A DNA stretch of 63,458 nt from Nemertoderma westbladi (lineage: Eukaryota > Animalia > Xenacoelomorpha). Under the pieces are notes generated by a model. The model was not told the origin of the DNA. It made no database searches and was given only the letters and a program-made list of their open reading frames with translations. Both the position numbers and the translations under genes were made by a program. The stretch spans positions 1-63,458 of the forward strand of contig JAUCBJ010001625.1 of NCBI GenBank assembly GCA_032718475.1, written 5' to 3'. Positions 35,923 to 61,722 of this stretch are shown piece after piece; within the stretch, counting starts at the first letter, position 1; the number at the start of each line of letters is the position of its first letter.

Positions 35923-35995
35923 CCTCCCGACCGGGATTCGAACTCGTAACCTATCTGTAATGTAACCAACGGCTTAACCATCTGACCACTACGCC
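35923..35995 (-). ncRNA. tRNA-like Pol III cassette in the BEL-B 5' LTR
   Basis: Same A/B-box cassette as 23066-23138. Confidence 0.65.
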
Positions 35996-36364
35996 ATGAG
36001 AGTAACTAGGGGTTTTATGTGTACAAATATGAATAGGCATATTACAATACTGTAACTTAATCAAAATGCGTCGGGTTTTAGAAAGTTTTTACGTGAAACT
36101 ACAAATGCTATCTTATAGTGAAATAATCCATCAATAAGATAAGATAAGATATAGTATTCGGAGATAACTCCAGTTAGAGTAGCGCACAGACAACATTAAA
36201 AATCACAATAAAAGGCACAATGTACCGACCAGGACAAAAGTAAAAAGGTTAACACGGTAAACGAGGCGACTGATACTCTAGCTTAAGTAAATATCAATTA
36301 ATATAAAATATGCAACGCATTGCACAAAGTATTTAAATGAAATAAAAATTCACAACGAAACAAG

Positions 36365-39722: not shown

Positions 39723-39939
39723 ATCGCTATTGTATTACGAGTGGTCAAAGTTTCATTAAGAACGGTGGTTTTGTTAGATAAGTTTACTACTGGGTTACCT
39801 CCTGATCGTTCTCCGCTGTAGCGCGTACTACTGTTGCCGGGTTCTGAAACCTTGGTCCGATAATTGGTGTACGGAAGTTATTTTTCTGACGTTGAGTGTC
39901 GAGTTTTCCAGATGCGGTGTCATAGTCGGCCTCAGAAAT

Positions 39940-41178
39940 TGTAAAAGCTTTTGTGGGATAACTGGTTCGTTTGCTTTGCTGGCCAGTTCCCCCCTGGTCG
40001 CTAGAAATACTCAAAAGGGGATCTGTAGTTAAAATAGTGCAAGCTACCAGCTTATTGGCTGATTTGCGGTATGCAGGTATCTGGGCTCTGTTTAATCGTC
40101 CAACTAGCCTAAGGGGGTTGCGTCATAGCCCTGTTTTTTGTATCTCCCAATAGAATTTGAGTTATCCTGGATTTTAACCAATCCTGAGCTACTGAACTGA
40201 AATTTTCCTATCTCACTGCTCATCCTCTGTGTTGAACGGGAGCTTCGTGGAATAAGTGTAGTTGGTATTCTCGTAGTCACGAGTTTTTCAAAGCCACGAA
40301 AGAACGGCTTTATAGTGTTTTGTGCTTTTCTGCTTTTAACTCAACACTAGTAGGTTTAATTATAAGGACATATATCCTTTAACTGGCAAAACGCACTAAC
40401 CAAACTGCACTACAAACGGCGGACCAGTAAACAAACTGCCTGACGCACGGCATACTACTGACTGCTGAAACATTGCAAACTCATAACAATCAGTGTTCAG
40501 TTGTTGTTTTATACTGCTATTTACTGTCGGTTATTCATTATATTTGTGGATGAATTATTATATTTGGAATAACGATAAATACCCCGAAACCCAATATTCT
40601 TGATATACCGAAGGTAAGAGAGAAAGGTTACAGATAAACGATTGTGACTTATGTTAAAGTGGTTTGAAGTGAATCTAATGTTATTTGATAGACCCTACAT
40701 GAGTCAGCCTGTGTTCCTTTTATATGTGACTAAAATCAGTGAAGATCGGCAGATTAGTGTGCAGTATTGTGCAGCATTGTGTATGCGTGAGTCTGTTAAA
40801 GAAGCATTTCCTAAAGAATGCGCCATATATGTTAATTATAACTAAACCATATCGTTGTGAGTAGTTTAAGTCATAACTCTGTTTATATAGATAGAGCGCC
40901 ACGTCCTAAAGGAACTGTTAATATTCCCCGAAGGTGAATAATATTGTCAGAGATTATATAATACTGTCAGTCGAATAATACATTAGGCTTACATAGCAAT
41001 AAGATTAAACCGTCGAACCCAATCTCCCGGGTATAACCAGCAGGTGAATGATCGCGCACGGATTGGTTTCGACTAGTGTAGTGAATCAAATACTTGTCGT
41101 AGGCAGAAAAGCGATTTAATATCTAGAAGACATCATAATTTGGCGGGTTAAACTGCCAAAGGTCTGAAAGCGCGAACA
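39940..41178 (+). repeat. BEL-C 5' LTR
   Basis: Direct repeat of 60484-61722. Confidence 0.97.
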
Positions 41179-41190
41179 TTAAAGGATATA
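41179..41190 (+). promoter_or_regulatory. BEL-C non-canonical primer-binding site (self-complementary)
   Basis: TTAAAGGATATA directly follows the LTR end and is the exact reverse complement of TATATCCTTTAA at 40371-40382 (and 60915-60926). Confidence 0.75.
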
Positions 41191-41224
41191 GCTTCTTTAT
41201 TGCAGTAAGCAATAAAGTTGAAAG

Positions 41225-41372
41225 TACCGGTCAACCGGTAAACCTGAACGGTACATCTGTAGGTCAGTAGGCCCAATTGCAAGAACCGGTACTGCTGTAG
41301 GCCCGTAGGTCCAACTGCAAGAACCGGTACTTCTGTAGGTCCGTAGGCCTAACTGTCCTAACCGGTACTTCC
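41225..41372. repeat. ~37-39-bp tandem repeat in the BEL-C leader
   Basis: CTGTAGGYCCGTAGGYCCAACTGCAAGAACCGGTAC, ~3-4 copies. Confidence 0.75.
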
Positions 41373-43138
41373 CGTATAAGTACATTAGTATTATTCGATT
41401 TGATTGTTGTATACTGGTAGGCTGTTTAAGAGATTAGGGACTGTACACCCCTTGTTTCTTTTGGAGCTTACTTATTTCTGTCAGTTTTATTTGTTAGTAG
41501 GCCAGTATTGAACAGAAGGCGTGTAAACCTGATCAGATTGTACAGACAATTTGTAGGCTGAGCTGTTGTCTGATTGCTGTTAGGTCTGAACGGATTGCAG
41601 TGTGTGTAGAGCAACTGTCTGGTTGAGTACGGTTAGGAAGTAGGGGCAGCGAACGCTGTAAGGTAAACCCCCAGCTAAAGAATAAGTCGTACTACTGGGT
41701 TAGAACGCATACTGCCTAATCATTTCGGAGTCTGCATATACCGTAGTTTGTTTAGGCTTGATGGTAGTCTGTCGGTATTTGGTCTGCATTTTGTTTGAGT
41801 AGTTTGTACGTGTAGCGTAATATTTATTATTCAGAGTTTATGCGATTATTCGCAACATTCATATTCCCCAAGTTTGTTCCTACAGTAATTGTGTTTGTTA
41901 TACATACCGTTATAGTTAAATTAACCCCGGTACTACACGGGCTGCTTGGCGTAGGTAAAGACTGGTGATTTTGTGCACCGGTTACTCCAGCAGATGCCGT
42001 GGTTCTTTTAGCTGTTCAAGTATATGTAACTACTGATTATCTGTTGTACAAGTACTCGTACCTAATTTAGGGTTTAGTGTACAGTGCTTTCCGAAAGTAA
42101 TTATTGTAGGCATTATATTTGTGTTGTAAAGTGGTTGATAGGCACGTTCGATTAGCTCTATTAACTTCTAGGTAGGAACACTCCGTGATACATAACGTAG
42201 AACCTATAGCGATACGGCCATAGGTCGTCAGGCGGTGGTATTTTCCTATCTAGACAACGCAGTGTATTTACTACTACTTATTATTTTCAAATACCGTAGT
42301 ACCCTGTCCGTTGTAATAACCAGATTCTAACCCTTTGTTAGGCTGGTTTGTAGACTTCTTGTAAAATTACCCTAAAAATTCGTATTTTGTGTTTTTGTAA
42401 ATTTTTGTGTTTATTTAGAGATTGTAATCTCAACCCGAATTGTACGTAATTTGTAGTATTAAGTAACTTAGGTAAATTAGAATTATTTGTTTTAGTGTCC
42501 TATAAGTAACACTCCACTGAAAGCGTACCGCTTTGTGCAGTGATTAACCCCAGAAATAATAACATTTATTTCAAATATTGCCAAAACCCATTAAACGGGT
42601 ACATATATTATAAATCAAATCTAACGATTTATAAATAGTAGGCCTACCATATAACCATTAGGTCTCAATATCAGTTGGACTACTGCTCAAATAACGGTAA
42701 TAAAGTAAGTAAAGTAACCAAGTAACCTTAAAGTACAGAAATTCAATTATTTAAAAATAATTGATATACCGGTATTTACGATAGGACTATTATCTTTATT
42801 TCTGTAAATTTAGGCTGAAATTATACTGGTACTTGTAATTAATTCTAGTCCAGAATTATATATACTACAAACTGTAAGCTGTATACCGGTATTCCCAATA
42901 GGCCTATTATATATTTATATATTTGTGCTAAAATTATACCGGTATTCTGAGATAAACCTAGTCTGTAATAATACTTATATATAATATAAGCATACCGGTA
43001 TTCTAATATATTATATATATATCACTCTACATTGAGTAGCAATATCGGTAATTAATTACTAGGCTAGTAGTTAATACTTAACTACTAGACTTGCTTAGAC
43101 TGTAATATAGCAGTAGGCATTCAACTGTATATACAAAT

Positions 43139-44587
43139 ATGTCTGATACTAAGCAGAACCTGTCAGACAGTCTATTAGATGTAACTATCTGCAACTCGGA
43201 TAGAGGTGTAGAACCCTCTAGTCGTAAGTCCAGTTCACCTCCCACTGTGAGGAAGGTCATCCCTCCAGTAGTAATAACAGAACCTAGGCTAGTCCAACAT
43301 CGTAGGTCTATCATAGGCACCCGAGCTCAGGTCAAGCGGGACCAAGAAGCAGCGGAACAGCAACAACCCGCGAGTCAAGAACTTATAACTCAGCGGCCCA
43401 GCAGCTCCAGTAGTGAGGATACTGTAGAGCTGACACCCGAGCGCGGAGCAGAGATGACGGATGCGGTTTATACGGATCCCCTTCTCATCCTTCCTGCAGC
43501 CGTACTCACTAGGTTATTGATCGCGGTGGAAGAACACCAGATCGATTGGGCGAGAAGTCAACGACCAACTAGAGATAGTTATGCGGGATACACGAGTGAA
43601 GAACTGAAGTCTATTGTCGAGTCACAATGGAACTTCCCCGGACCCGGACTCCCGTTTGATTTATCAGAAGCTGCCTGGGAAGACATACACCGGATGGGAG
43701 TAGCCAAGGAAACCATCGATCCAGCTGTATGGAAGAGGTCCGCAGCCGGATACGCACAAGGATTCTTCAGCTCTATGGAGCGAGTAGAAAAACAACTGTT
43801 TCAACAACCTCAAGGACCTCAAGAGCAGGGATCGCTGCTTTATCAAGTTAGAGAAAGAGTTCTGCGAATTAGGCTAATCTTATCCGCCTTTGAGGAGGCT
43901 TCTAAAAGAAGACAAGACACGTCGTTGCAAGTTGCCGTGAAGACTTGGTTTCAACGAGTGAGACGCCAGGTTCAAGGAGCAGCTCAGTGGAAAGCTCAGT
44001 TGGAGGAGCGCTCAACCCATGGAGAATCAACCGACGCTACTTTTTCCCAAGTGGAAAGTGAAGCGACGGCAGAGAAACCACATAAGAAGGATGCCATTGA
44101 CATCTATCTGTCAGACTATCAGCGCTTTGTAGGAGACGCAGAGTTGAGGAGAAGGTTAGAGGGACTTAGCCCTAATAGCGAAGGAGCCAAACTTGTGTTG
44201 GATGCAATTGATGTAGATAGGTTAGCGGCGAACCAAGCTAAATTCGATGAACAACTCCGCATCGCTAGAGAAAGGGAAGAACAAGTAAAGAAAAAACGTA
44301 TAGAAGACAGAAAGGCAGCGGCAGTAGCAGCAGCAGTGGCATCTGCAGAGGCTGAAAGAAAAACGGCAGCGGCAGAGGCAAAAGCGGCAGCGGCAGAGGC
44401 AGCGGCAGAGGCAAAGGCAGCAGCCGAAGCGGAAAGAAAGGTGGCGGAGGCAGTGGTAGAAGCAGAACGGAGAGCGGCTGAAGAAACCAACCAATTAGAA
44501 TTGGAAAACATTCAAGAGAATCAAGACTGCATAAACAATAATAACATAAACAAACTGCTAAGCAGAACCTGTCAGACAGTCTATTAG
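43139..44587 (+). CDS. gag: BEL-C gag N-terminus, copy 1 (ends at duplication junction)
   Basis: ATG at 43139; Ala/Glu/Lys coiled coil similar in character to BEL-B gag. Confidence 0.75.
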   Translation: MSDTKQNLSDSLLDVTICNSDRGVEPSSRKSSSPPTVRKVIPPVVITEPRLVQHRRSIIGTRAQVKRDQEAAEQQQPASQELITQRPSSSSSEDTVELTPERGAEMTDAVYTDPLLILPAAVLTRLLIAVEEHQIDWARSQRPTRDSYAGYTSEELKSIVESQWNFPGPGLPFDLSEAAWEDIHRMGVAKETIDPAVWKRSAAGYAQGFFSSMERVEKQLFQQPQGPQEQGSLLYQVRERVLRIRLILSAFEEASKRRQDTSLQVAVKTWFQRVRRQVQGAAQWKAQLEERSTHGESTDATFSQVESEATAEKPHKKDAIDIYLSDYQRFVGDAELRRRLEGLSPNSEGAKLVLDAIDVDRLAANQAKFDEQLRIAREREEQVKKKRIEDRKAAAVAAAVASAEAERKTAAAEAKAAAAEAAAEAKAAAEAERKVAEAVVEAERRAAEETNQLELENIQENQDCINNNNINKLLSRTCQTVY

Positions 44588-45947
44588 ATGTAACTATCTG
44601 CGACTCGGATAGAGGTGTAGAACCCTCTAGTCGTAAGTCCAGTTCACCTCCCACTGTGAGGAAGGTCATCCCTCCAGTAGTAATAACAGAACCTAGGCTA
44701 GTCCAACATCGTAGGTCTATCATAGGCACCCGAGCTCAGGTCAAGCGGGACCAAGAAGCAGCGGAACAGCAACAACCCGCGAGTCAAGAACTTATAACTC
44801 AGCGGCCCAGCAGCTCCAGTAGTGAGGATACTGTAGAGCTGACACCCGAGCGCGGAGCAGAGATGACGGATGCGGTTTATACGGATCCCCTTCTCATCCT
44901 TCCTGCAGCCGTACTCACTAGGTTATTGATCGCGGTGGAAGAACACCAGATCGATTGGGCGAGAAGTCAACGACCAACTAGAGATAGTTATGCGGGATAC
45001 ACGAGTGAAGAACTGAAGTCTATTGTCGAGTCACAATGGAACTTCCCCGGACCCGGACTCCCGTTTGATTTATCAGAAGCTGCCTGGGAAGACATACACC
45101 GGATGGGAGTAGCCAAGGAAACCATCGATCCAGCTGTATGGAAGAGGTCCGCAGCCGGATACGCACAAGGATTCTTCAGCTCTATGGAGCGAGTAGAAAA
45201 ACAACTGTTTCAACAACCTCAAGGACCTCAAGAGCAGGGATCGCTGCTTTATCAAGTTAGAGAAAGAGTTCTGCGAATTAGGCTAATCTTATCCGCCTTT
45301 GAGGAGGCTTCTAAAAGAAGACAAGACACGTCGTTGCAAGTTGCCGTGAAGACTTCGTTTCAACGAGTGAGACGCCAGGTTCAAGGAGCAGCTCAGTGGA
45401 AAGCTCAGTTGGAGGAGCGCTCAACCCATGGAGAATCAACCGACGCTACTTTTTCCCAAGTGGAAAGTGAAGCGACGGCAGAGAAACCACATAAGAAGGA
45501 TGCCATTGACATCTATCTGTCAGACTATCAGCGCTTTGTAGGAGACGCAGAGTTGAGGAGAAGGTTAGAGGGACTTAGCCCTAATAGCGAAGGAGCCAAA
45601 CTTGTGTTGGATGCAATTGATGTAGATAGGTTAGCGGCGAACCAAGCTAAATTCGATGAACAACTCCGCATCGCTAGAGAAAGGGAAGAACAAGTAAAGA
45701 AAAAACGTATAGAAGACAGAAAGGCAGCGGCAGTAGCAGCAGCAGTGGCATCTGCAGAGGCTGAAAGAAAAACGGCAGCGGCAGAGGCAAAAGCGGCAGC
45801 GGCAGAGGCAGCGGCAGAGGCAAAGGCAGCAGCCGAAGCGGAAAGAAAGGTGGCGGAGGCAGTGGTAGAAGCAGAACGGAGAGCGGCTGAAGAAACCAAC
45901 CAATTAGAATTGGAAAACATTCAAGAGAATCAAGACTGCATAAACAA
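43149..45947. repeat. Tandem duplication, offset 1409 bp
   Basis: 43149-44538 is repeated at 44558-45947, with a 19-nt filler between copies. Confidence 0.95.
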
Positions 45948-46692
45948 ACAGTTAACAGCTAGTAATATGCAGATGATGAATCGATCTACTCCCAAACGAC
46001 AAGGTTATACATCATCTGAGGAAGGCGATACCACCGATACTGAAGGCAAAGGAAATAGATCTCGTCTAAGTAGACGTAAAAGAACATTCCACCGTCAGAA
46101 ATTGCCTGATTTGCCTCCAGCTGTTAGAAGGCAACTAAATAGCACCAACTTAGGTAGTACAGAACCCACAGACCAAATAATTAAAATCGAAAGACTCCCT
46201 ACTATAGTAGATGAGCCTGAAATAATTAGGCCTGTTCTTGAAATCACCCCTACTGTGATAGACACACCTGTGCTCCCTGAAATAACCGCTAAATTCCCTC
46301 TGCATAGCACTAAGCTACCTGTGCCCCGTAGAACTGCCCAGGCGACAGTTCAGGTCCTGGACCCCGAGCGAAATATTCATAATTTGTCGCCCGTTGTCCC
46401 TCGTCCGCCCGCTACATCGTTGGCGACTCCCGCTTCGGCGGTCGAATGGGTGGACGAGAGACGGCGGGGGATGGATATCCTGCTCGGGCAGATGCAGGAG
46501 ACTGTCCAGCAATTTAAGGGCACGGTAAGGGAAAGTAGACTAGAGTTGCAAGAAGTGCAGCAAAGTATCGCGCTAGAGCGCGATACCCAAAGAGGTGAGG
46601 TCTCTATAGGGGTGTCGCGAACAGGCGGCGGCGGGCTCGTGAGGGTCTGGGGGCACGTTAAATCCTCTAGTATAGTGCAAGGGAGTTACTGA
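44656..46692 (+). CDS. gag: BEL-C gag N-terminus, copy 2 (runs into the solo-LTR-like insert)
   Basis: Nearly identical to copy 1, then continues until the insert at 46613. Confidence 0.75.
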   Translation: MRKVIPPVVITEPRLVQHRRSIIGTRAQVKRDQEAAEQQQPASQELITQRPSSSSSEDTVELTPERGAEMTDAVYTDPLLILPAAVLTRLLIAVEEHQIDWARSQRPTRDSYAGYTSEELKSIVESQWNFPGPGLPFDLSEAAWEDIHRMGVAKETIDPAVWKRSAAGYAQGFFSSMERVEKQLFQQPQGPQEQGSLLYQVRERVLRIRLILSAFEEASKRRQDTSLQVAVKTSFQRVRRQVQGAAQWKAQLEERSTHGESTDATFSQVESEATAEKPHKKDAIDIYLSDYQRFVGDAELRRRLEGLSPNSEGAKLVLDAIDVDRLAANQAKFDEQLRIAREREEQVKKKRIEDRKAAAVAAAVASAEAERKTAAAEAKAAAAEAAAEAKAAAEAERKVAEAVVEAERRAAEETNQLELENIQENQDCINKQLTASNMQMMNRSTPKRQGYTSSEEGDTTDTEGKGNRSRLSRRKRTFHRQKLPDLPPAVRRQLNSTNLGSTEPTDQIIKIERLPTIVDEPEIIRPVLEITPTVIDTPVLPEITAKFPLHSTKLPVPRRTAQATVQVLDPERNIHNLSPVVPRPPATSLATPASAVEWVDERRRGMDILLGQMQETVQQFKGTVRESRLELQEVQQSIALERDTQRGEVSIGVSRTGGGGLVRVWGHVKSSSIVQGSY

Positions 46693-47652
46693 AGGCCCTC
46701 GTGTCTTGCGAACCATGAATTGACATGGTGCCGTGGTACCGTCTAGTCGGCCTGTTGCCGTACTGCCAGTCCTGTACACAGTAGGGGTGGTGGCATAGTG
46801 TGATCTGTGGTTTGTGTGTGTACGTAGTATACGTGAGTGTGTGTATGGCCACTGCGAGTGAGTGTGGGAAACCTTGCCGGTTGGTTCAGTCGCCGCCGGT
46901 TATTAGTAGGACCATATCTTTACTGCGCCCCAGCATACTTTGTGCACACAAAGTTATTTTGCCCTGACGGCAAAATAAGGTACTCTCGACTCTTTAACAG
47001 TCGATACAATTTTGTCCCCTCTGATTTCGTCCCCGATTTTGTCTATTCCCGATTATGTCTTCTGTGTGTGCATGGTATGTGTCCGATTTTGTGTCTACCG
47101 TAGTGTACTCGATTTCGTGAGCATCTATTGAGTACATGTGTACAGTGACTGGTAAGTGGTGACTTGTTCTTAGCTTAGCTTTTAAGCTAGTCAGTATTGT
47201 TGGTGGAACCGACTTCCCCTCAATACTGCCGGCGAGGCGGGTGAAAACGGTCAATATTCCATGCTGGGTAGCGCAAGCCCACATGGGACAAGACCGTCGG
47301 TTTGGCTCAAGGGCGACCTTGATGCTCGATCGCTATCGACTGGTCCACCCGCCGGTTGACTCTCTGAGTTGGCTCAATGTACAGTCAGGCCACAGTAAGT
47401 TGACAGTAGGCGAACTTTGAGTCGCCGTTCGGCTACACACGACGAGCTGTGCCGGTGTGATCGGGGGATTGAAAATTGAACCCGGGAAGCATCGGGCTAC
47501 CCTCCGGCCCGGTCTGATAAAAACGGAGTCGGACTGGCCCCAAGGGTAGTGGAAAAGCGTCCGCCTCGTGGGTGCGCCTCGGGGAGGAGCCCAGAAGGAC
47601 GTAAGCGAAATTAGTAAATACCCAAAGGGGTATACCACCACCCTCTGTAACA
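46613..47652 (-). mobile_element. Solo-LTR-like insert in BEL-C gag (1040 bp)
   Basis: Non-coding block bounded by TGTCGC...GTAACA that interrupts gag. AGTAAA on minus. No clean TSD. Confidence 0.5.
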
Positions 47653-50600
47653 ATGTGTCAACCTGTTAGGTCTGAAGTAACACATGCGCAAGGTGTGGAG
47701 CCTACATGCATTTATACTGCTAGCGAAGTAGAAACTCCTATTGTGAACCCTATTAAGGGTAATTATAGACCTGTTGATAATGACATTCCCTATAGACCTG
47801 ATCATAATCCGAGAAATTTATATACCGATAACTCGATATTAAATAACACGATGGCCCAAGAAAGTTTTACGCGTCAAATGGCTAGAACCGAAGCCCGGCA
47901 AGCGGTAAAGGTTGGAGAGATCGTCAAGTTCAATGGAGATGAGATGAAATGGTTACTTTTTAATGAATATTACAAAGATAACATACAGAACTCTGTACTG
48001 TCTAACGGAGAGAAACTTAGATTCCTCATCGAATGTTTGGAAGGACCTCCCAAGTCAATGGCGTTAAAATTTATTGGACATCCAGATGGATTAAGACAAG
48101 TTTGGGATACACTAAACATCAGGTATGGTAATAGGACTAACATAGCTAGGTATTTATATGCGAAATTAATGGCGCCCCGAAAGTTTCTTAGCAGCGGGAT
48201 TATAGAGTTTTCCGATGAGATTCAGGAGATCTGTAGACAACTAGATTGGTTAGGTAAGTCTCATGAATACCAGAATTCTATGGTTGTAGGAGCCTTAGCA
48301 TCTACTTTGCCCAAGGGTGGAGTAGGTACACGCTGGGACAAGAAGGTGTTATATATGATGGAACAACAACAACGAGACCCTACCATGGCAGATTTCATGT
48401 CATTCCTGGATGGAGAAGTGAAATTGCAACTCCTCAAGCAATCCAGAGAGAAGACACCGGAAAGTAAGGTAAGTGAGAAACCCGTTTCTAGGAGAAGGGT
48501 AATACCAGTATGTTATACCGACGACGGTGAAAGACAAACTTCTCAAGGAGAGGACAGCGGGAAAGACACTGACAGATCTTATGTCAATAAAATGCCTAAA
48601 GATCAGGTAAGTAAATCCAAGTCTCGACCCAATGACAGAAGGGAACCGGTACAAAAAACCCCTCCTACGTCTCCTAAAAGAATTCAGGTGAGAAAGCCCG
48701 AGGAAAGAACAAGTGTGCACCACACAGCACATGTTAAAGTAAGTAACATCAAGCCCAAATGTGTGCTGTGCGATGGGCCCCACCGTTTAAATGCGTGTGA
48801 TAAATTCCTGAGGAAATCACTAAAGGATAGACGTGAAGTCATGTGGGATAAGCGGTTGTGTTATAATTGCCTCAGACGAGGACACCAACGGCGAACCTGT
48901 AACTCTGACGCAAGGTGTGCAAAGTGCGGCGCAAAACATCATATCTTGTTGCACACGGAATTCGAACAAAACAGTCCGAATCAGGTAAGTGATTCCGAAC
49001 TACATGTCCAATTCAGTGATGTAAACGACACTGATCAATCTGAGATGGAAGGATTCTATACAGACGAGATCTCCGACGAAAACGAATCCTGTTACTTGAT
49101 AAATACCGCAGTGTATCGAGCACTCACATATGAAAAGGATACAGACAGCGACCTCACTCTAACTACTTCTGAACGACAACCGTCTTGGAAAGAGCCATCT
49201 TCCAATGTAGGGATTAGAGAATTTCCTGTGGTACAGGTAAGGGTTCACGGACCTAAACGGAGTTATGTAGTGAACGCCCTCCTTGACTCCGGTAGTACAG
49301 GAACATTCATCGACCAAGAGCTAGCCGAAGACATATTTGCTGGACAACCCAAGTTCCGAACTACGCTCAACATGTCAGGCATTATGCAAGTCTGGAAATC
49401 CACAATAACAGCGGATTATTATGTAGGAGCGTTGTCCACCCCACAGGACGAACTAGGAGAACATAGCATCAGGTCAGTGAAAATGGTGGCTATAAAGAAC
49501 TTCGCTACTACTCAAGCAGACCTTTATAATTGGGACGAGGATGAGAGCATCCAACATCTTAACATACCTCGATTCCAGACTGATTATCCTGGAGTGCAAA
49601 TACTCATCGGCCAAAACGCGCATGAGGCGCTGGAGACATTAGAGAAACGGCCTGCTCAACCGCAGCCACTACAGACCTATGCGGTAAGAACTAGAGTAGG
49701 TTGGTACCTTACTGGACCTTCCAGAAAGGCAGCGGCAGTAGCAGCAGCAGTGGCATCTGCAGAGGCTGAAAGAAAAACGGCAGCGGCAGAGGCAAAAGCG
49801 GCAGCGGCAGAGGCAGCGGCAGAGGCAAAGGCAGCAGCCGAAGCGGAAAGAAAGGTGGCGGAGGCAGTGGTAGAAGCAGAACGGAGAGCGGCTGAAGAAA
49901 CCAACCAATTAGAATTGGAAAACATTCAAGAGAATCAAGACTGCATAAACAAACAGTTAACAGCTAGTAATATGCAGATGATGAATCGATCTACTCCCAA
50001 ACGACAAGGTTATACATCATCTGAGGAAGGCGATACCACCGATACTGAAGGCAAAGGAAATAGATCTCGTCTAAGTAGACGTAAAAGAACATTCCACCGT
50101 CAGAAATTGCCTGATTTGCCTCCAGCTGTTAGAAGGCAACTAAATAGCACCAACTTAGGTAGTACAGAACCCACAGACCAAATAATTAAAATCGAAAGAC
50201 TCCCTACTATAGTAGATGAGCCTGAAATAATTAGGCCTGTTCTTGAAATCACCCCTACTGTGATAGACACACCTGTGCTCCCTGAAATAACCGCTAAATT
50301 CCCTCTGCATAGCACTAAGCTACCTGTGCCCCGTAGAACTGCCCAGGCGACAGTTCAGGTCCTGGACCCCGAGCGAAATATTCATAATTTGTCGCCCGTT
50401 GTCCCTCGTCCGCCCGCTACATCGTTGGCGACTCCCGCTTCGGCGGTCGAATGGGTGGACGAGAGACGGCGGGGGATGGATATCCTGCTCGGGCAGATGC
50501 AGGAGACTGTCCAGCAATTTAAGGGCACGGTAAGGGAAAGTAGACTAGAGTTGCAAGAAGTGCAGCAAAGTATCGCGCTAGAGCGCGATACCCAAAGAGG

Positions 50601-50697: not shown

Positions 50698-51657
50698 AGG
50701 CCCTCGTGTCTTGCGAACCATGAATTGACATGGTGCCGTGGTACCGTCTAGTCGGCCTGTTGCCGTACTGCCAGTCCTGTACACAGTAGGGGTGGTGGCA
50801 TAGTGTGATCTGTGGTTTGTGTGTGTACGTAGTATACGTGAGTGTGTGTATGGCCACTGCGAGTGAGTGTGGGAAACCTTGCCGGTTGGTTCAGTCGCCG
50901 CCGGTTATTAGTAGGACCATATCTTTACTGCGCCCCAGCATACTTTGTGCACACAAAGTTATTTTGCCCTGACGGCAAAATAAGGTACTCTCGACTCTTT
51001 AACAGTCGATACAATTTTGTCCCCTCTGATTTCGTCCCCGATTTTGTCTATTCCCGATTATGTCTTCTGTGTGTGCATGGTATGTGTCCGATTTTGTGTC
51101 TACCGTAGTGTACTCGATTTCGTGAGCATCTATTGAGTACATGTGTACAGTGACTGGTAAGTGGTGACTTGTTCTTAGCTTAGCTTTTAAGCTAGTCAGT
51201 ATTGTTGGTGGAACCGACTTCCCCTCAATACTGCCGGCGAGGCGGGTGAAAACGGTCAATATTCCATGCTGGGTAGCGCAAGCCCACATGGGACAAGACC
51301 GTCGGTTTGGCTCAAGGGCGACCTTGATGCTCGATCGCTATCGACTGGTCCACCCGCCGGTTGACTCTCTGAGTTGGCTCAATGTACAGTCAGGCCACAG
51401 TAAGTTGACAGTAGGCGAACTTTGAGTCGCCGTTCGGCTACACACGACGAGCTGTGCCGGTGTGATCGGGGGATTGAAAATTGAACCCGGGAAGCATCGG
51501 GCTACCCTCCGGCCCGGTCTGATAAAAACGGAGTCGGACTGGCCCCAAGGGTAGTGGAAAAGCGTCCGCCTCGTGGGTGCGCCTCGGGGAGGAGCCCAGA
51601 AGGACGTAAGCGAAATTAGTAAATACCCAAAGGGGTATACCACCACCCTCTGTAACA
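50618..51657 (-). mobile_element. Second copy of the solo-LTR-like insert (part of the 4005-bp duplication)
   Basis: Matches 46613-47652. Confidence 0.5.
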
Positions 51658-54501
51658 ATGTGTCAACCTGTTAGGTCTGAAGTAACACATGCGCAAGGTG
51701 TGGAGCCTACATGCATTTATACTGCTAGCAAAGTAGAAACTCCTATTGTGAACCCTATTAAGGGTAATTATAGACCTGTTGATAATGACATTCCCTATAG
51801 ACCTGATCATAATTCGAGAAATTTATATACCGATAACTCGATATTAAATAACACGATGGCCCAAGAAAGTTTTACGCGTCAAATGGCCAGAACCGAAGCC
51901 CGGCAAGCGGTAAAGGTTGGAGAGATCGTCAAGTTCAATGGAGATGAGATGAAATGGTTACTTTTTAATGAATATTACAAAGATAACATACAGAACTCTG
52001 TACTGTCTAACGGAGAGAAACTTTGATTCCTCATCGAATGTTTGGAAGGACCTCCCAAGTCAATGGCGTTAAAATTTATTGGACATCCAGATGGATTAAG
52101 ACAAGTTTGGGATACACTAAACATCAGGTATGGTAATAGGACTAACATAGCTAGGTATTTATATGCGAAATTAATGGCGCCCCGAAAGTTTCTTAGCAGC
52201 GGGATTATAGAGTTTTCCGATGAGATTCAGGAGATCTGTAGACAACTAGATTGGTTAGGTAAGTCTCATGAATACCAGAATTCTATGGTTGTAGGAGCCT
52301 TAGCATCTACTTTGCCCAAGGGTGGAGTAGGTACACGCTGGGACAAGAAGGTGTTATATATGATGGAACAACAACAACGAGACCCTACCATGGCAGATTT
52401 CATGTCATTCCTGGATGGAGAAGTGAAATTGCAACTCCTCAAGCAATCCAGAGAGAAGACACCGGAAAGTAAGGTAAGTGAGAAACCCGTTTCTAGGAGA
52501 AGGGTAATACCAGTATGTTATACCGACGACGGTGAAAGACAAACTTCTCAAGGAGAGGACAGCGGGAAAGACACTGACAGATCTTATGTCAATAAAATGC
52601 CTAAAGATAAGGTAAGTAAATCCAAGTCTCGACCCAATGACAGAAGGAAACCGGTACAAAAAACCCCTCCTACGTCTCCTAAAAGAATTCAGGTGAGAAA
52701 GCCCGAGGAAAGAACAAGTGTGCACCACACAGCACATGTTAAAGTAAGTAACATCAAGCCCAAATGTGTGCTGTGCGATGGGCCCCACCGTTTAAATGCG
52801 TGTGATAAATTCCTGAGGAAATCACTAAAGGATAGACGTGAAGTCATGTGGGATAAGCGGTTGTGTTATAATTGCCTCAGACGAGGACACCAACGGCGAA
52901 CCTGTAACTCTGACGCAAGGTGTGCAAAGTGCGGCGCAAAACATCATATCTTGTTGCACACGGAATTCGAACGAAACAGTCCGAATCAGGTAAGTGATTC
53001 CGAACTACATGTCCAATTCAGTGATGTAAACGACACTGATCAATCTGAGATGGAAGGATTCTATACAGACGAGATCTCCGACGAAAACGAATCCTGTTAC
53101 TTGATAAATACCGCAGTGTATCGAGCACTCACATATGAAAAGGATACAGACAGCGACCTCACTCTAACTACTTCTGAACGACAACCGTCTTGGAAAGAGC
53201 CATCTTCCAATGTAGGGATTAGAGAATTTCCTGTGGTACAGGTAAGGGTTCACGGACCTAAACGGAGTTATGTAGTGAACGCCCTCCTTGACTCCGGTAG
53301 TACAGGAACATTCATCGACCAAGAGCTAGCCGAAGACATATTTGCTGGACAACCCAAGTTCCGAACTACGCTCAACATGTCAGGCATTATGCAAGTCTGG
53401 AAATCCACAATAACAGCGGATTATTATGTAGGAGTGTTGTCCACCCCACAGGACGAACTAGGAGAACATAGCATCAGGTCAGTGAAAATGGTGGCTATAA
53501 AGAACTTCGCTACTACTCAAGCAGACCTTTATAATTGGGACGAGGATGAGAGCATCCAACATCTTAACATACCTCGATTCCAGACTGATTATCCTGGAGT
53601 GCAAATACTCATCGGCCAAAACGCGCATGAGGCGCTGGAGACATTAGAGAAACGGCCTGCTCAACCGCAGCCACTACAGACCTATGCGGTAAGAACTAGA
53701 GTAGGTTGGTACCTTACTGGACCTTCCCGTAGAACGCTCAGGGAAAGAATGCTTCAAGATCGCGTCTGCCAGGTGAGTGAATGGGAAGATGATACTAGTG
53801 AGGGAGACGACCCAACTGAGGGAACACCACACTCCTCAGATAATGACAATCTTAGCTCCAATGTAGATCAATGGAGATATTGCCCCAAGAAGTTTAATCC
53901 AACGGACATCGCTTCCAGAGGAGCAACTCCTCAAGAACTGACAGATACTATAGACCGGTTAGGTGAACCCGACTTCCTGAGTAAGGAGAATGAATGGCCT
54001 CCCCATCTTACTCCGACTGAGATTAGACCAGCCAAGGGAGCGGAGAAAGCCGAACCTGAAACCCGGACGGGTGGATCGGAGTTATTTGAACCCGGGATAG
54101 ATCTGTCGGTATTACATATTGCCAGGGACGACGCCGTGGATCTGGACCTCCCCACCGCGAGTGGATCCTTCATGAAGATCAGAGAGAGCGATTGGAGCTC
54201 TGGAACATCAGACGTCTCGCAGGGACTCTCACCTCTCCTGCAGAGAGCGACGGACCACTATAGCTCCTGGAATCGGCTTTGTGACGCCGTCATATACTTT
54301 GAGCGATGTTTCTATCGTCACTATTCCAGGACGAAGAGGAAACCTGGAATTGTATTCAGGATGCAGCGACTCAATCACCCAGTCGGTCGTTTGTGTTTAC
54401 CGGAAGGGAATGGAGGACTCTCCGGAAACTGTGGAAGGCAAGATTCTCTTCCCACGACCACCTCCCTAATCCTTCAAACATCTAGGGACTCCATAACGTA
54501 G
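51658..54501 (+). pseudogene. pol: BEL-C gag core, protease and deleted pol (RT/RNase H and most of integrase missing)
   Basis: Premature TGA at 52024. After GWYLTGP the frame jumps to the RNase H tail QWRYCP..NPTDIASRG. No YxDD and no integrase core. Confidence 0.88.
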
Positions 54502-56151
54502 CAACATATGGAGTGGGTGTGTGACTCTATTATTTTATATTATTTTATTATTTTCATATTTATGTATGTATTACTATGTAATTTTATTATAATCGTTTTA
54601 TTTAATTTAGTAGAATATTATTTAGCGATTATTTAGTAGAATAGTGCAATATATTCGTGTTTATTACGTACGTAATTACGTATATATTATATTTAATGCG
54701 ACGGCAAGAAATAATTCTTTTCCTTCTTCCTTACTGTCCGTATTACATTACAAATACGTAACTACAGTAAGATGAAATGTCCGTACTTATTAAAGTACAA
54801 TAAAGCCACTACTATATTCAAGTATTATTGGTAGGCAGAGTATTAGGAATGCAAAGTTCAGATCCTCGTGTCTCGGCTAAACCAAGCTCTGGGTAGACCT
54901 TGGAAACGACTTGCCTCTTCACACTGACATTGCTTCGTGCGATATTGCTCTCATACCGTATATTAAATAATACATATAGTAGCGTGATGTCCCTTTAACA
55001 GTAGCGTATAACGCAAAATAAATCTGTTAAACCCTTTGACCATCTGTAATTCTAGTCGATTAAGATATCGTGGCACCCACCGATATACTTGAAAGACAAA
55101 TTATAGAATCAGTGGTTAACGTCCCCAGACAAGTTCTGGAATAAATCGGTGCCCATCTCAAATATTAATTAGTTAATATTTACAAATCAAATAAGTCAAA
55201 ATCTGTAAAATTCAGATCCTTCAACAATTCTAGTCAATTAAGATATCGTAGCATTTACCGATATTCTTAAAGAGACAATTTCTTAGAATTAAGGATCTTG
55301 TGTCCCTAGACATGTTCTAGAATCAAAATATGTCAATTTAATTATCAAATAATAAAATTTCAGGGAATAAATTTAAATTCATGTTTTTTAATGAATTTAA
55401 TAAATTGCTATTTCACGCAATTTATAACATTCCCAAAATTCCATTAATTAATAGATCAAGGGAGTGGAGATTTATATTATTATGCGTATGCGTGTAAGAA
55501 AGTCTCCCAAACATAGTCAATAGCCGATAAAATTCATAAAGTCATGTATAAAACAGGACCTTGACTATTAAAGAATTACTATTAAATAACATCCCAGATC
55601 TGTATGCCTTGGAATTACCCTAATTCTACCGCTAGCTTTGCATAATGTCACCATAGCAACAACCACGCTAGAATTAGAATTGAGTAAAAAGAACAATAGA
55701 AAGCTTGTCCCATTGAATAGCATAGGGAATAAATAGCGCACTGCTAGTATCCAAGGATACATAACAATACAGTGACATTCTGGAAGGCATTGACTAACGG
55801 ACAAATGGCCCGAATGTGTGTAGTTGTGACAAGTTGTATTGTATTTGTGAGTTTATAGGTGAATGTTACTGCTAAAGTGTGTTTACAGTAGCTAGTCGCA
55901 ATCGTAAAAGTAACCTAACTCTCCAAGGAAAACCTGACGTACATCTAAGCCTTTGGGACGGACAGTGGAGTGACTTGTGCTGGTTATCGTTGTCGTTGTA
56001 CAGCTACGTCGTTGGCGAAAGTACAGCTACAGCGGTATATCGGCGCTGAGAATCTCTTACTGTCCGGGGGCACGGGAGAAATAGGCAGCGACGCCCGCTC
56101 GCCTAACGATATATAAACTCATTATAATATTGGTGAACTCGTATAGCAGAT

Positions 56152-59100
56152 ATGACTGAATTAATAGAAGATGATCTTGGTATCAGGGAGAGATATACTC
56201 TACCTTTACAAGCGTTTGTCGATAGCTTGATACGCGGCGACGCTGATCCAACTACTACAGAGGACGATGGTCGTTATATCGAACCGCCAATGTCCCAGGA
56301 GCAACTTACGCGTGAATTGGATTATAGAAAGTTCACGGCTCGCTATACGCATCGTAATGGTACGTATATGGACTTCTTGACTACTGGTCACCCTATCGAT
56401 TTACACGATACGGACGATGTAGACACCGAAAGGGAAATGGTTTTATTTAAATATCATACCCAGCGGAGTCGAAACGATAAATCGAGAATAGAACACGAGA
56501 ACTCTATTCGAAACAAACTCGAAAGAGAAGACGTTGAAGAACCTGATAAACGTAACGGTTTCAACGATTATCTAGAATTCTTACGAGAGACCTATCTCAA
56601 TGTTGCCAGTCAACAAAATCTCGAAACTCGATATCCTCAAGGTATACATCCAGATCCTATAATGGAACTCAAACGGCTCTATTTTACGATGATGTATCTT
56701 ACCGCCGATCGACCGCTACCTGTCGTTCCAGATAGCTTCGAACAGATGGAGGAATATTGTAAAACTGGAGAGCGATCACCCGCGTTTCCCCTTCAAGACG
56801 TGCGTCTTTGGTATTACTGTGACGAATGCCCTAGACCTAACCAGCAAATCGAAAGGCATAAACATCCTCGGAGACGTTGCGCTAAACACAGTTTTACGCG
56901 ATATACTTATGGGAGTTTCGAGCGTAACCTTTTCGACGTATCGCCTACGGTCGCGCGCCTTAAGCGATCATTGAATAAACCCATGATCAGAGTTCCGGAA
57001 TACTCGGTCAGACCTCCCCATTCACAAGTGATACCTCAAACTCTAGACCCTAATAGTATTACGGATCCTCCCGAGCTGTACTCACTGTTCAAAGATCTAG
57101 TGTTACCTGAACAGTTGATTGGTGGCACTCCGGTAGTGGGTTCGTTGGATATTCGCCAACCTTACCTCGCTGGACTAGGACGCGGTCATCTAATATCACC
57201 GTTTAACCCCTACAACCGTCCTGGCCTTCCTCCGATCCAACCTGTTACAGAAGTCGAAGAGAGCGTGATACGAAATGCATTGGACGCTATTCGGCAGAAA
57301 ATCGGAAAAGGAACTTACGATTGCTTGGAGAAACGTAAATTGCAACAACAAGTCCAAGCGGTGAAAGAACTAGCTTTACCCCAGTTCGATAGAGAAATAC
57401 AAAATCTAGAGGAGGACATCGAACGTGGACGAACCTACTCTTTACAGGAATTCCTGGACGAGCGCTTGCAACAACAAGCGGAGGAAAATCAGCTCGAGGA
57501 AAGACATATAGAGCTGACTGAGAGGGAAGAAGCAGCTTTAGCTCAACCGGAAGCTCAAATTCTCGTGACGGATCTCTATTCCAAAACGATCCTCCACCCC
57601 TCGATGGTTCCTCATTTCAAAGACAAGCTCTTTGCTACGGTACAACCTCAACCGGTTAATACTGATCTCAGATCTCACAAGCTCGTTGCTGACGCTCCCA
57701 TGCTACAACGTCCACCCGTCGAGGCTGCTCGTGTCGATGGCGTACTTGTTGAGCCTCCGGACAATAGAGCGGATCTTGTCCGTCGCATGGTGCACGATGT
57801 TAACATACGCGCTAGACCTTTGCCGGACTCTTTTTATGGAATTAAGGATCACCCTTATTACGTCAATTTGAAGCAATATTACATGGTGAAACCGGAAGAT
57901 CCTACGCATAGTCTGAGGTTCCTACCATTAATCAATCCTCTCGATCTTGTCGAACTCGAACAACTACAAAAACATTTAGATCAGCTAGTTAAACTGAACT
58001 CATTTCGAAAACCGTATAATATTTCTAGAATAGAGAAAGAGATATCACCTCCGTACAATCTTGATGGATTCATTAAAACTCGATTAGTACACTGGAATCT
58101 TGACGTGTTATTCGAGGAAGAAAGAATAAAACGATATGGAGATGTGGAAACCTATACTACACAATGCTTAAAGTATAGAGATTTACCCAATGCTAACGAG
58201 TGCGCTACTTTGTGGCATCCAGTGGGAATGACTCTCAAAAACGCCACTAAAGAATGGAACGAGACTCTTAACGTTATCGAGATGTATGGCGTTGTTACTT
58301 ATGACAACGAAGGTAGCGTTCCGGTGGGAGAACTAGGAACTACGCGAATGATACATATACGAGGACTCGCTGGTTCTACCCACGTATTCACTCGAGCGTG
58401 TTCCGACGTAATAGATTATTCTTTTGAACCTCTTACAGAGATACAAAAGAAACTTCGACATGGACAATTCGAGCTTGTGCAGCGTTACGTCACCGACACC
58501 GAACGCAAACCGGCCATGGGTATCGATGGATTAATGTTACCCCAACCTGTGCTCGAAATGTTGTTTAACGAAAGAATTCTAAAAATCGGCTCAGCTGTTT
58601 ATGGAGATCTCCAAAACGACTTCCGGAATATGGAGAACATTCCATACCCTTTCGTTGATACTCAGCTGATTGCTCCTTGGGCCAAAGGCAGAGGTTTCTT
58701 TCGCACTATGTATGCTAATACACCCAGCGGCATTACTAAAGTACAACGGACATCCATCGGACATCTTGCCTTTCAAGAATATGGTTGGAATTTCAAGGTT
58801 GGAAACCCTATTAATTACCAGCAAGTATATGGAGATCATTACTCTCGTTTATATTTCGATAGACCATTAACTGCGCCTGGTGCCGTATATAGCTTTATGA
58901 GTGTTCCACTTCGCCCCTCCTTAGCTATATACACGATCTTTGAAAACGCAGCACTTGCCGGTTGGCTAGCCGATGTGTGCAGTCGTACCATACGCGCTCA
59001 CCCATTAATACTTGGAACTAAACTCGCTAAGTTAGACGAACATAATAAGTTTATACGTTTCGAATGTTTCCGGCGCTTTCTGACTCCGTTCCGCAACGTC

Positions 59101-60405
59101 GATAGTCAGTTCAAGGACTGCGCGCTGACCAAACTTAGTCTAAGAGACTCAGCTGCGGAGAAACTGAGTAGCGCTGGATTTGCCGTTTTTCAAGACGTTT
59201 GTATACAGAACTTACATTCATCTGTTATACAAAGACCTCGAATACCTACGGGATATTCTGTCGTGGAAATACAAACAGTGGGTCCACTTACGGAAACAGA
59301 CGCACCCACTTCGTCTATGCAGTTGGAGGATGAGCCAGTATGCTTGGAATCAGAAGCGATTCAGCCTACAGCTTCCCGGAGCAGTGACAATGATTATGTC
59401 ATAGAGTGGTATCAAGGTCCACAGCGTCTCACAGCGTACGATTATCGACACGCCAACTACGTTTCCCGAAAACGTTGTCGATTATGCGCATCGAGAGACC
59501 ACTTCACCCCTCTCGACTCCAACGCACCTTGCTCCTATTTCCTCGAACAACCGATGATGGAAATATATTGTGCTTATTGCAGACTTAATAACTCTCATAT
59601 TTTTGCTGTCTGCCCACAATTTATGACTCAGTGTCACTACTGTCAACTTAAAGGACATGAAAGTTATAATTGTCCCTTTAATCGCGATTTAGAGAGCGTA
59701 GACGAGATGATCACCCTGCGATACATCCGAGCTTGGGAAGCGAATGCAGATTTACATTGCGAATCCCGACATCGCTATTACCCTGGACGAGCTTACGAGG
59801 GAGTTTACACGTTCCATCCTTACCTATTCGCATCGATTGAGCAGAAAACACGCGTACCAAGTTACGAGTTAATGAAGCGTGTTGGTGAGTGTATTTCCAC
59901 CAAGTTTGTCAGAAAATATCTTAGAAACGTCAACCCTAATGATATAACCACTTATCACCTGATCAATTTTATACGTCAGGACCCTGAGTATGGCGACATC
60001 TTTGTAAACTCGCATCCTGAACTACAAGAAATATCTCGGCGACCATATGAATATCGAACCCGAGAACGCGAGCTGGAGAGAACCATTAAACCGAGAAAGT
60101 TCCTCACCACTCACGGTCCACCCACCGCTAGTGTCCAGACTACCCGTCAAGGACCCGTAGGAGCTGCTGTCCTGAGACGCGCCCTAAAGGCCGTTAGATC
60201 TCGCTCCACTGAGGTTGATATTAATCAACCAGGCACTTCGACCGGCGGGTATACCGATCGTAATCCTACACCTTCTGATGCAATCGTATTGCACCCTTCG
60301 CCTAGGAGCTACAGCCCTCCTCATAAAGTGGCTCGCCCCAAAGAGAAAAAGACTCTTGCTAGCCTCAAGAAACTGCGTAAACGCCGTCCGCGCAAGAAAG
60401 ACTAA
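56152..60405 (+). CDS. BEL-C accessory protein (1417 aa): unknown N-terminal domain, DEDD 3'-5' exonuclease-like domain, CCHC zinc knuckles, basic tail
   Basis: Intact ORF between pol and the PPT. ExoI-like YDNEG (D718/E720), ExoII-like KIGSAVYGD (D819), FVDTQ, ExoIII-like YTIFE (Y927/E931). Knuckles at ~aa 1140-1174. No signal peptide or TM segment seen. Confidence 0.85.
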   Translation: MTELIEDDLGIRERYTLPLQAFVDSLIRGDADPTTTEDDGRYIEPPMSQEQLTRELDYRKFTARYTHRNGTYMDFLTTGHPIDLHDTDDVDTEREMVLFKYHTQRSRNDKSRIEHENSIRNKLEREDVEEPDKRNGFNDYLEFLRETYLNVASQQNLETRYPQGIHPDPIMELKRLYFTMMYLTADRPLPVVPDSFEQMEEYCKTGERSPAFPLQDVRLWYYCDECPRPNQQIERHKHPRRRCAKHSFTRYTYGSFERNLFDVSPTVARLKRSLNKPMIRVPEYSVRPPHSQVIPQTLDPNSITDPPELYSLFKDLVLPEQLIGGTPVVGSLDIRQPYLAGLGRGHLISPFNPYNRPGLPPIQPVTEVEESVIRNALDAIRQKIGKGTYDCLEKRKLQQQVQAVKELALPQFDREIQNLEEDIERGRTYSLQEFLDERLQQQAEENQLEERHIELTEREEAALAQPEAQILVTDLYSKTILHPSMVPHFKDKLFATVQPQPVNTDLRSHKLVADAPMLQRPPVEAARVDGVLVEPPDNRADLVRRMVHDVNIRARPLPDSFYGIKDHPYYVNLKQYYMVKPEDPTHSLRFLPLINPLDLVELEQLQKHLDQLVKLNSFRKPYNISRIEKEISPPYNLDGFIKTRLVHWNLDVLFEEERIKRYGDVETYTTQCLKYRDLPNANECATLWHPVGMTLKNATKEWNETLNVIEMYGVVTYDNEGSVPVGELGTTRMIHIRGLAGSTHVFTRACSDVIDYSFEPLTEIQKKLRHGQFELVQRYVTDTERKPAMGIDGLMLPQPVLEMLFNERILKIGSAVYGDLQNDFRNMENIPYPFVDTQLIAPWAKGRGFFRTMYANTPSGITKVQRTSIGHLAFQEYGWNFKVGNPINYQQVYGDHYSRLYFDRPLTAPGAVYSFMSVPLRPSLAIYTIFENAALAGWLADVCSRTIRAHPLILGTKLAKLDEHNKFIRFECFRRFLTPFRNVDSQFKDCALTKLSLRDSAAEKLSSAGFAVFQDVCIQNLHSSVIQRPRIPTGYSVVEIQTVGPLTETDAPTSSMQLEDEPVCLESEAIQPTASRSSDNDYVIEWYQGPQRLTAYDYRHANYVSRKRCRLCASRDHFTPLDSNAPCSYFLEQPMMEIYCAYCRLNNSHIFAVCPQFMTQCHYCQLKGHESYNCPFNRDLESVDEMITLRYIRAWEANADLHCESRHRYYPGRAYEGVYTFHPYLFASIEQKTRVPSYELMKRVGECISTKFVRKYLRNVNPNDITTYHLINFIRQDPEYGDIFVNSHPELQEISRRPYEYRTRERELERTIKPRKFLTTHGPPTASVQTTRQGPVGAAVLRRALKAVRSRSTEVDINQPGTSTGGYTDRNPTPSDAIVLHPSPRSYSPPHKVARPKEKKTLASLKKLRKRRPRKKD

Positions 60406-60469
60406 CTGTTTAGAGTATTTTTATATTTTAGAAACTGTGATTTTGTATATTTTATAGACTTAAATCCCA

Positions 60470-60483
60470 TTTTCTGGGAGCGG
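60470..60483 (+). promoter_or_regulatory. BEL-C polypurine tract
   Basis: TTTTCTGGGAGCGG abuts the 3' LTR TGT. Confidence 0.75.
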
Positions 60484-61722
60484 TGTAAAAGCTTTTGTGG
60501 GATAACTGGTTCGTTTGCTTTGCTGGCCAGTTCCCCCCCGGTCGCTAGAAATACTCAAAAGGGGATCTGTAGTTAAAATAGTGCAAGCTACCAGCTTATT
60601 GGCTGATTTGCGGTATGCAGGTATCTGGGCTCTGTTTAATCGTCCAACTAGCCTAAGGGGGTTGCGTCATAGCCCTGTTTTTTGTATCTCCCAATAGAAT
60701 TTGAGTTATCCTGGATTTTAACCAATCCTGAGCTACTGAACTGAAATTTTCCTATCTCACTGCTCATCCTCTGTGTTGAACGGGAGCTTCGTGGAATAAG
60801 TGTAGTTGGTATTCTCGTAGTCACGAGTTTTTCAAAGCCATGAAAGAACGGCTTTATAGTGTTTTGTGCTTTTCTGCTTTTAACTCAACACTAGTAGGTT
60901 TAATTATAAGGACATATATCCTTTAACTGGCAAAACGCACTAACCAAACTGCACTACAAACGGCGGACCAGTAAACAAACTGCCTGACGCACGGCATACT
61001 ACTGACTGCTGAAACATTGCAAACTCATAACAATCAGTGTTCAGTTGTTGTTTTATACTGCTATTTACTGTCGGTTATTCATTATATTTGTGGATGAATT
61101 ATTATATTTGGAATAACGATAAATACCCCAAAACCCAATATTCTTGATATACCGAAGGTAAGAGAGAAAGGTTACAGATAAACGATTGTGACTTATGTTA
61201 AAGTGGTTTGAAGAGAATCTAATGTTATTTGATAGACCCTACATGAGTCAGCCTGTGTTCCTTTTATATGTGACTAAAATCAGTGAAGATCGGCAGATTA
61301 GTGTGCAGTATTGTGCAGCATTGTGTATGCGTGAGTCTGTTAAAGAAGCATTTCCTAAAGAATGCGCCATATATGTTAATTATAACTAAACCATATCGTT
61401 GTGAGTAGTTTAAGTCATAACTCTGTTTATATAGATAGAGCGCCACGTCCTAAAGGAACTGTTAATATTCCCCGAAGGTGAATAATATTGTCAGAGATTA
61501 TATAATACTGTCAGTCGAATAATACATTAGGCTTACATAGCAATAAGATTAAACCGTCGAACCCAATCTCCTGGGTATAACCAGCGGGTGAATGATCGCG
61601 CACGGATTGGTTTCGACTAGTGTAGTGAATCAAATACTTGTCGTAGGCAGAAAAGCGATTTAATATCTAGAAGACATCATAATTTGGCGGGTTAAACTGC
61701 CAAAGGTCTGAAAGCGCGAACA
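60484..61722 (+). repeat. BEL-C 3' LTR
   Basis: Direct repeat of 39940-41178. Confidence 0.97.

Follow-up and report, generated by a model that had tools for sequence, protein, structure and literature searches.

The closest described counterparts of the priming arrangement reported here are retrotransposons with long terminal repeats (LTRs) that belong to the Ty3/gypsy chromoviruses. In Tf1, Tf2, Tj1 and the Tf1/sushi group, and by prediction in the plant elements Tcn1 and TAR, the primer-binding site (PBS) has its complement in roughly 10-12 nt of LTR from the same element and matches no tRNA (excerpts of PMC4600332 and PMC6317226), and in Tf1 cleavage by RNase H frees the primer (excerpts of PMC4600332, including titles in its reference list). 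The bdelloid rotifer elements Juno, Vesta and Athena/Terminon carry a third open reading frame (ORF3) for an RNase D-like DEDDy protein, for which 3'-end processing of element RNA has been proposed, with no activity shown (excerpts of PMC5408684). BEL/Pao elements are described in the 2021 International Committee on Taxonomy of Viruses (ICTV) profile of the Belpaoviridae as having an 18-nt PBS for tRNA-Arg or tRNA-Gly, LTRs that are 0.2-1.2 kb long, and a third gene that is env (PMC8742986). Here we analyse a 63,458-nt contig of Nemertoderma westbladi (JAUCBJ010001625.1, assembly GCA_032718475.1; the window), in which three BEL/Pao LTR elements, A, B and C, lie amid fragments of long interspersed nuclear elements (LINEs). 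B and C each have a PBS complementary to their own LTR, and C has an intact accessory gene, also termed ORF3, that encodes a predicted exonuclease with Cys/His knuckles. An earlier note on this DNA had proposed that the two are coupled, with the exonuclease maturing the element's own RNA primer; we favour a reading in which the element RNA primes but its end would be cut by RNase H.

LTR-complementary PBSs in elements B and C and in BEL/Pao relatives

Elements C and B are arranged as follows.
39940-61722, forward strand: element C, a BEL/Pao LTR element
39940-41178, forward strand: 5' LTR of C, 1239 nt, TG...CA, with a 5-bp target-site duplication (TSD) on both sides of the element
40371-40382, forward strand: LTR-internal site pairing with the PBS, LTR positions 432-443, candidate self-primer
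41179-41190, forward strand: PBS of C, TTAAAGGATATA, spacer 0, no TGG start
60476-60483, forward strand: purine-rich tract ahead of the 3' LTR of C
60484-61722, forward strand: 3' LTR of C, containing the second site copy 60915-60926
36133-21046, reverse strand: element B, BEL/Pao, gag-pol broken
33950-36133, reverse strand: 5' LTR of B, 2184 nt, with the self-complementary site 35255-35246
33940-33949, reverse strand: PBS of B, GT start, spacer 0
21046-23276, reverse strand: 3' LTR of B, sharing 95.5% identity with its 5' counterpart and containing the site copy 22398-22389

The 12 nt that directly follow the 5' LTR of C match the complement of 40371-40382 without a mismatch, and so also that of the 3' copy 60915-60926, and neither this 12-mer nor its complement occurs anywhere else in the window. 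A match of 12 nt was reached at one of 19,275 internal positions, which is the PBS itself, and in 2 of 5,000 Markov-simulated LTRs. The PBS of B (33949-33940) is complementary over 10 nt to LTR positions 879-888 (35255-35246 and 22398-22389), a length reached in 17 of 5,000 simulated LTRs and at 0.3% of 10,643 internal positions. The LTR-internal complement that the earlier note had described is therefore present in both elements. Plant self-primers have been predicted from at least 10 nt of LTR complement lying 0-5 nt from the LTR (excerpts of PMC6317226), and B and C fall within that range with 10 and 12 nt, respectively, at spacer 0. Neither PBS starts with TGG, and the 18-nt tRNA PBS of the ICTV profile is seen in neither; many of the relatives fail to show it as well. 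From these pairings it is likely that B and C prime reverse transcription with their own RNA.

Membership of A, B and C in BEL/Pao is based on their proteins and not on PBS type. A and B have a DUF1759 gag and the order protease, reverse transcriptase (RT), RNase H and integrase with Peptidase_A17, and C has gag-protease plus RNase H and integrase remnants only. The RT homologues are BEL/Pao Peptidase_A17 proteins, and the RTs did not qualify as those of Ty3/gypsy chromoviruses. The BEL/Pao landmarks of TG...CA LTRs, a polypurine tract and a TSD are also present, and the two LTRs of C (39940-41178 and 60484-61722) are 99.5% identical, with 6 differences.

The site in C lies within a block, 40344-40384, to which one diverged related LTR aligns before diverging, suggesting that the block with the site has been kept; this comparison uses a single contig of run X1, whose contigs are of uncertain kind. 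No GT..AG joint was found among the run X1 contigs listed, which has no bearing on expression or splicing, and a junction scan of B and C found no splice junction that lengthens either match. The promoter-like boxes of B, three CCAAT and one TATA, sit some 500 nt upstream of the site and place the likely start about 470 nt upstream of it. Long-range folding gave a site-PBS pairing of either 0.0 or >0.9 depending on the RNA start chosen, and is thus not diagnostic. A canonical AATAAA was found in neither the B nor the C LTR. Positions 40372-40380 within the C site match perfectly the U12-type AT-AC 5' splice-site consensus, which may be chance. Cer7-type BEL elements of C. elegans reportedly have an RNase D-like accessory ORF and a self-encoded tRNA-like primer, which would set a precedent for the idea in the earlier note. 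A self-encoded tRNA primer was sought here as well, and neither a tRNA gene nor an Rfam family turned up. The B LTR does have a stretch that resembles a tRNA, with motifs like the A and B boxes (35922-36000 and the 3' LTR equivalent), which is negative by ARAGORN and Rfam.

We also scanned metagenome contigs for BEL/Pao relatives, grouping the best 80 of 566 matches into 53 families, of which 43 were testable and 10 were dropped for too little sequence upstream of the RT. In 13 of the 43, sequence 0-5 nt past a candidate LTR end can pair over 11-15 nt with a predicted exon-exon junction within the family's own LTR region. Complement-only and reverse-only controls each gave 0 of 43, and in 1000 draws of pseudo-ends from pol the mean was 1.0 family and the highest count 3. 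For L035 and L057, a second LTR copy confirms where the LTR ends.
Junction families: L001, L002, L016, L031, L033, L035/L041, L044, L047, L051, L057, L061, L068, L075

The paired tract begins with GT in 12 of these 13 families and likewise in the PBS of B, such that the would-be primer ends in A-C; the site in element C is also followed by that cytosine. A start common to B and 12 of 13 relatives hints that a single mechanism defines the end, whether ORF3 is present or not. Contiguous self-matches were seen in 6 of 43 families against a null mean of 3.7, and were dropped as evidence because they show no excess. In L057 the 5' LTR copy is already without the intron present in the 3' copy. BEL RTs were also sought in viral contigs, and nothing was found there.

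The accessory gene and its distribution

The accessory gene and its traces in the window are listed here, together with the deleted region that precedes the gene in C.
53728-54501, forward strand: deleted pol of C, with short RNase H-end and integrase-end remnants and no RT (by tblastn)
56152-60405, forward strand: accessory ORF3 of C, intact, with 1417 aa counted from the first ATG
58300-58947, forward strand: predicted DEDDy exonuclease core, D723/E725, D824 and Y932/E936 (numbering from 56137)
59476-59673, forward strand: three Cys/His knuckle-like motifs (zf-CCHC_3, E 0.011, below cut-off)
4413-7906, reverse strand: broken accessory ORF of element A with exonuclease motifs and knuckles, an in-frame stop and an 884-nt duplication
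24056-24175, reverse strand: ORF3 remnant in B, matching ORF3 residues 167-206 only

DEDDy 3'-5' exonucleases, such as RNase D, WRN and EXD, have the motifs ExoI D-x-E, ExoII D and ExoIII Y-x3-D. The nuclease domains of C and A are homologous (E 8e-10, 24% identity), and both have D-x-E, an Asp eight residues past a Lys, and Y-x3-E. A single outside homologue, P0127, was found among 1.84 billion representatives, and has all three motifs and the knuckles. The ExoI D-x-E, the ExoII Asp and the ExoIII Tyr are kept in C, A and P0127, with the ExoIII Asp replaced by Glu in all three, and these acidic motifs are conserved although the proteins are only 24-26% identical. The knuckles of P0127 resemble retroviral nucleocapsid (E 1e-4). 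P0127, a protein of 648 aa on a 9449-nt contig from another source, has the same exonuclease-plus-knuckle layout as ORF3. The notion that C is without an ExoIII acid was dropped, as the alignment places a Glu there. The duplication in A (5379-7152) has 94.7% identity.

Profile and structure comparisons gave weaker signals. Pfam gave nothing above cut-off for the accessory protein; NCBIfam RNase D matched it at E 0.0035, far under the cut-off, over 45 aa of the ExoII stretch, and P0127 matched PF01612 at E 0.2. In the Atlas the C domain adjoins the PF01612 3'-5' exonuclease clusters (0.91), sharing 150 features against 170 typical of members, as does P0127 (0.94, 179 features), and for both the top rank goes to unnamed clusters. 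Sequence searches of PDB with the nuclease domain gave nothing significant, EXD2 and RNase D appearing at E 1.7-2.4 only, and two AlphaFold2 models have a pLDDT of 29-30, too low to show an RNase H-like DnaQ fold. The assignment thus depends on the motifs and on weak profile or language-model matches, and not on a fold, and with good confidence we predict that the domain is a DEDDy-type 3'-5' exonuclease. The earlier note had spoken of a 3'-5' exonuclease and of knuckles: the ORF and the knuckles are present in C and the DEDDy motifs are kept, but no profile match exceeds its cut-off. It had also stated that both elements testable for self-priming carry the gene or its remnant, which holds for C with its intact ORF3; in B the remnant, which matches ORF3 residues 167-206 at E 1e-7, lies outside the nuclease and knuckles and includes no part of either.

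A profile built from the C domain together with P0127 recovers the A domain at E 1e-5, and with it this nuclease was found in 0 of the 80 outside loci (7,248 translated segments, best E 1.6), with tblastn in agreement. The word index, viral contigs, metagenome contigs and phages yielded no relatives of ORF3, nor did the viral and metagenome contigs yield an ORF3-bearing locus outside the window. The measured gap between integrase and LTR is below 240 nt in 10 of the 13 junction families (by eye, about 115 nt in L001) and at most 409 nt in all 35 families in which it could be measured, whereas it spans 4.4 kb in element A and 6.0 kb in element C. Co-occurrence of nuclease and self-complementary PBS across BEL families, as expected from the earlier note, therefore fails, since at least 10 families have such a PBS and no room for the gene; in one of the two directions named beforehand as telling against coupling, families with a self-complementary PBS and without the nuclease proved to be common. 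Because these relatives pair with their own LTR without ORF3, the nuclease is probably not what makes the primer, and the sequences compared leave the coupled system unsupported as a general mechanism.

In a quick RT/RNase H tree of 70 rows, built without bootstrap and with 'none' labels that include families whose LTR is partly off the contig, A joins B as its sister (SH-aLRT 96), and the pair falls, with weak support (91), among these outside families, apart from insect elements. If A and B form one clade, the co-occurrence of nuclease and self-complementary PBS amounts to about one phylogenetic event. Self-priming is likely to be older and more widespread than the nuclease gene.

Formation of the primer end

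The reading that we prefer, with a probability of roughly 0.6, is that these BEL/Pao elements are primed by their own LTR RNA, that the 3' end of the primer is cut by the RNase H of the RT by analogy with Tf1, and that ORF3 is a later, clade-specific acquisition with another job. The LTR site would fold onto the PBS within the genomic RNA, and RNase H would cut the duplex 3' of the site to give a 3'-OH, from which minus-strand DNA would copy the LTR end back to the cut and then jump to the 3' LTR. C, having no RT, would depend on an autonomous partner to copy it in trans. We infer that ORF3 most likely binds and trims element RNA or small RNAs, either in the assembly of ribonucleoproteins or to counter silencing by the host. 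If the cut is made in cis, it would also be understandable that junction-type relatives retain the LTR intron, since for the part lying upstream of the cut the 3' LTR would serve as template.

Several observations weigh against this reading. The RNase H step is borrowed from Tf1, in which the primer is the 5' end of the RNA, whereas the likely start in B lies well upstream of the site. The 13 relatives use splice-junction sites and B and C contiguous ones, and since contiguous matches in the relatives show no excess over the null, the window clade could work differently. C keeps ORF3 intact and loses pol, which fits an important role for ORF3. The PBS of C is without the initial G of the GT rule, and in most outside loci the LTR end is a candidate ACA that is unconfirmed. 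A and B are on long branches, so that, with a quick tree without bootstrap, both their sisterhood and their placement are unsure.

In the coupled system, a short transcript of the LTR, or else the copy in the 3' LTR, would be annealed by the knuckles and trimmed by the ORF3 exonuclease as far as the duplex with the PBS, leaving a priming 3'-OH at the LTR boundary. It could apply to this clade only, with a captured exonuclease-knuckle protein trimming contiguous LTR RNA annealed to the PBS to a flush 3'-OH, and in that form we regard it as distinctly unlikely. The spacer of 0 in both B and C speaks for it, the sites of the window clade are contiguous rather than junctions, and the acidic motifs are conserved across three divergent proteins. 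ORF3 has also outlasted pol in C, and the knuckles of P0127 are nucleocapsid-like. Nonetheless, self-complementary PBSs are common without ORF3, B has no nuclease part, and the co-occurrence carries little weight if it represents about one event. Gag has Cys/His knuckles of its own, and DEDDy ORF3s occur in unrelated retroelements, including Penelope-like elements without LTRs (excerpts of PMC5408684). Were the coupled system true, a retroelement would encode its own primer as well as an enzyme to complete that primer.

Self-priming could also work in trans, through a short and often spliced LTR transcript that splicing or 3' processing brings to an end and that a host exonuclease, for example the exosome, trims, with ORF3 unrelated or assisting. 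That splicing is needed to build the site in the relatives argues for such a route, and the B site lies about 25 nt past a predicted acceptor and 2 nt ahead of a donor-like motif; similarly, the conserved block in the relative of C starts about 27 nt upstream of the site and ends 2 nt past it. Plain trimming, however, would not account for the common GT start, and neither LTR has a canonical AATAAA, such that host processing seems to us unlikely, if still worth entertaining. A further idea dispenses with a cut, the RT starting from the 2'-OH of a conserved A near the end of the duplex in the manner of retrons, which prime from a branch G. The sites end in A-C in 12 of the 13 junction families and in B, and in element C this A is paired and the next C unpaired. 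The motif could equally be a cleavage determinant, however, and we know of no precedent for 2'-OH priming in LTR elements, so we consider it highly improbable. Finally, the primer might be a host RNA, either a tRNA fragment or another small RNA, with the LTR pairing serving as a structural or regulatory stem. This would agree with the description of the Belpaoviridae as tRNA-primed (PMC8742986), but the PBSs of B and C are without a TGG start and the PBS letters differ among B, C and the relatives, each being matched by its own LTR, which makes a host primer improbable. Priming by element RNA with a cut by RNase H remains the reading that we adopt.

Remaining features and comparison with known systems

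Further features of the window are listed here.
3221-4231, reverse strand: probable 3' LTR of A, with a purine tract and a 7-nt terminal inverted repeat
43106-53727, forward strand: gag-protease region of C with near-identical tandem duplications
14604-16457, 36544-39734, 695-1233, 19165-19930 and 19938-20549: LINE endonuclease/RT fragments, an LTR-type RT/RNase H fragment (by eye) and a 43-nt tandem array

No 5' LTR, PBS or second LTR copy of A was found within the window. In C, 43149-44538 is repeated as 44558-45947, and 45717-49722 as 49722-53727; these near-perfect tandem duplications (43149-45947 and 45717-53727; 1.4 and 4.0 kb, 99.8%) could be assembly artefacts. A 1024-nt insert in the gag of C (46586-47609 and 50589-51612) is absent from one contig of run X1. 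C is without RT and integrase (53728-60405), yet its 1417-aa accessory ORF is intact and its LTRs are 99.5% identical, and judged by its sequence it is young and non-autonomous, with the accessory gene retained. B contains eight copies of a 19-nt hairpin-forming motif in coding and non-coding parts (23751, 24014, 24737, 28951, 29029, 29107, 31307 and 32364), with 0 expected by chance, which is possibly a packaging or protein-binding signal. A has six copies of a 16-nt motif against 0.08 expected (3429, 3641, 3770, 3873, 7694 and 14125), the LTR having four of them and the accessory ORF and gag one each, and this motif has a short core in common with that of B.

In the literature searched, with subscription journals mostly uncovered, we found no report of self-primed BEL/Pao elements, splice-junction primers or a BEL/Pao exonuclease-knuckle gene, and none appears in the excerpts of PMC3286476, PMC554778, PMC3118150, PMC9094657, PMC3601003 and PMC5443660. 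The window elements resemble the Belpaoviridae in their DUF1759 gag, in the BEL order of protease, RT-RNase H (Peptidase_A17) and integrase, and in the 5-bp TSD, and differ from the ICTV profile in the self-complementary PBS, the 2.2-kb LTR of B and a third gene that is not env-like. A self-priming signature in two window elements and 13 of 43 outside families stands beside the official tRNA-primed description of BEL/Pao, and the poorly understood replication of these elements becomes directly testable with short RNAs and RT.

Like the Tf1 group, B and C have an LTR-complementary PBS 0-5 nt after the LTR; the Tf1 group is Ty3/gypsy and the elements here are BEL/Pao, and the Tf1 primer is the 5' end of the mRNA. 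Unlike in Tf1, the outside relatives have their site across a predicted splice junction. The excerpts of PMC4600332 and PMC6317226 mention no accessory nuclease for Tf1, and C has ORF3. Juno and Vesta, as described in the excerpts of PMC5408684, are similar to C in having a DEDDy ORF between pol and the 3' LTR with one catalytic Asp changed to Glu. By the same description, C differs in its BEL/Pao host, its longer ORF of 1417 aa and its knuckles, and the Glu is at the ExoIII position here (D-E-D-E in our alignment) and not as in the DEED of the rotifer proteins. If the sequence-based prediction is correct, the range of accessory DEDDy genes borne by retroelements would reach beyond rotifers to BEL/Pao, where exonuclease and knuckles form a new layout.

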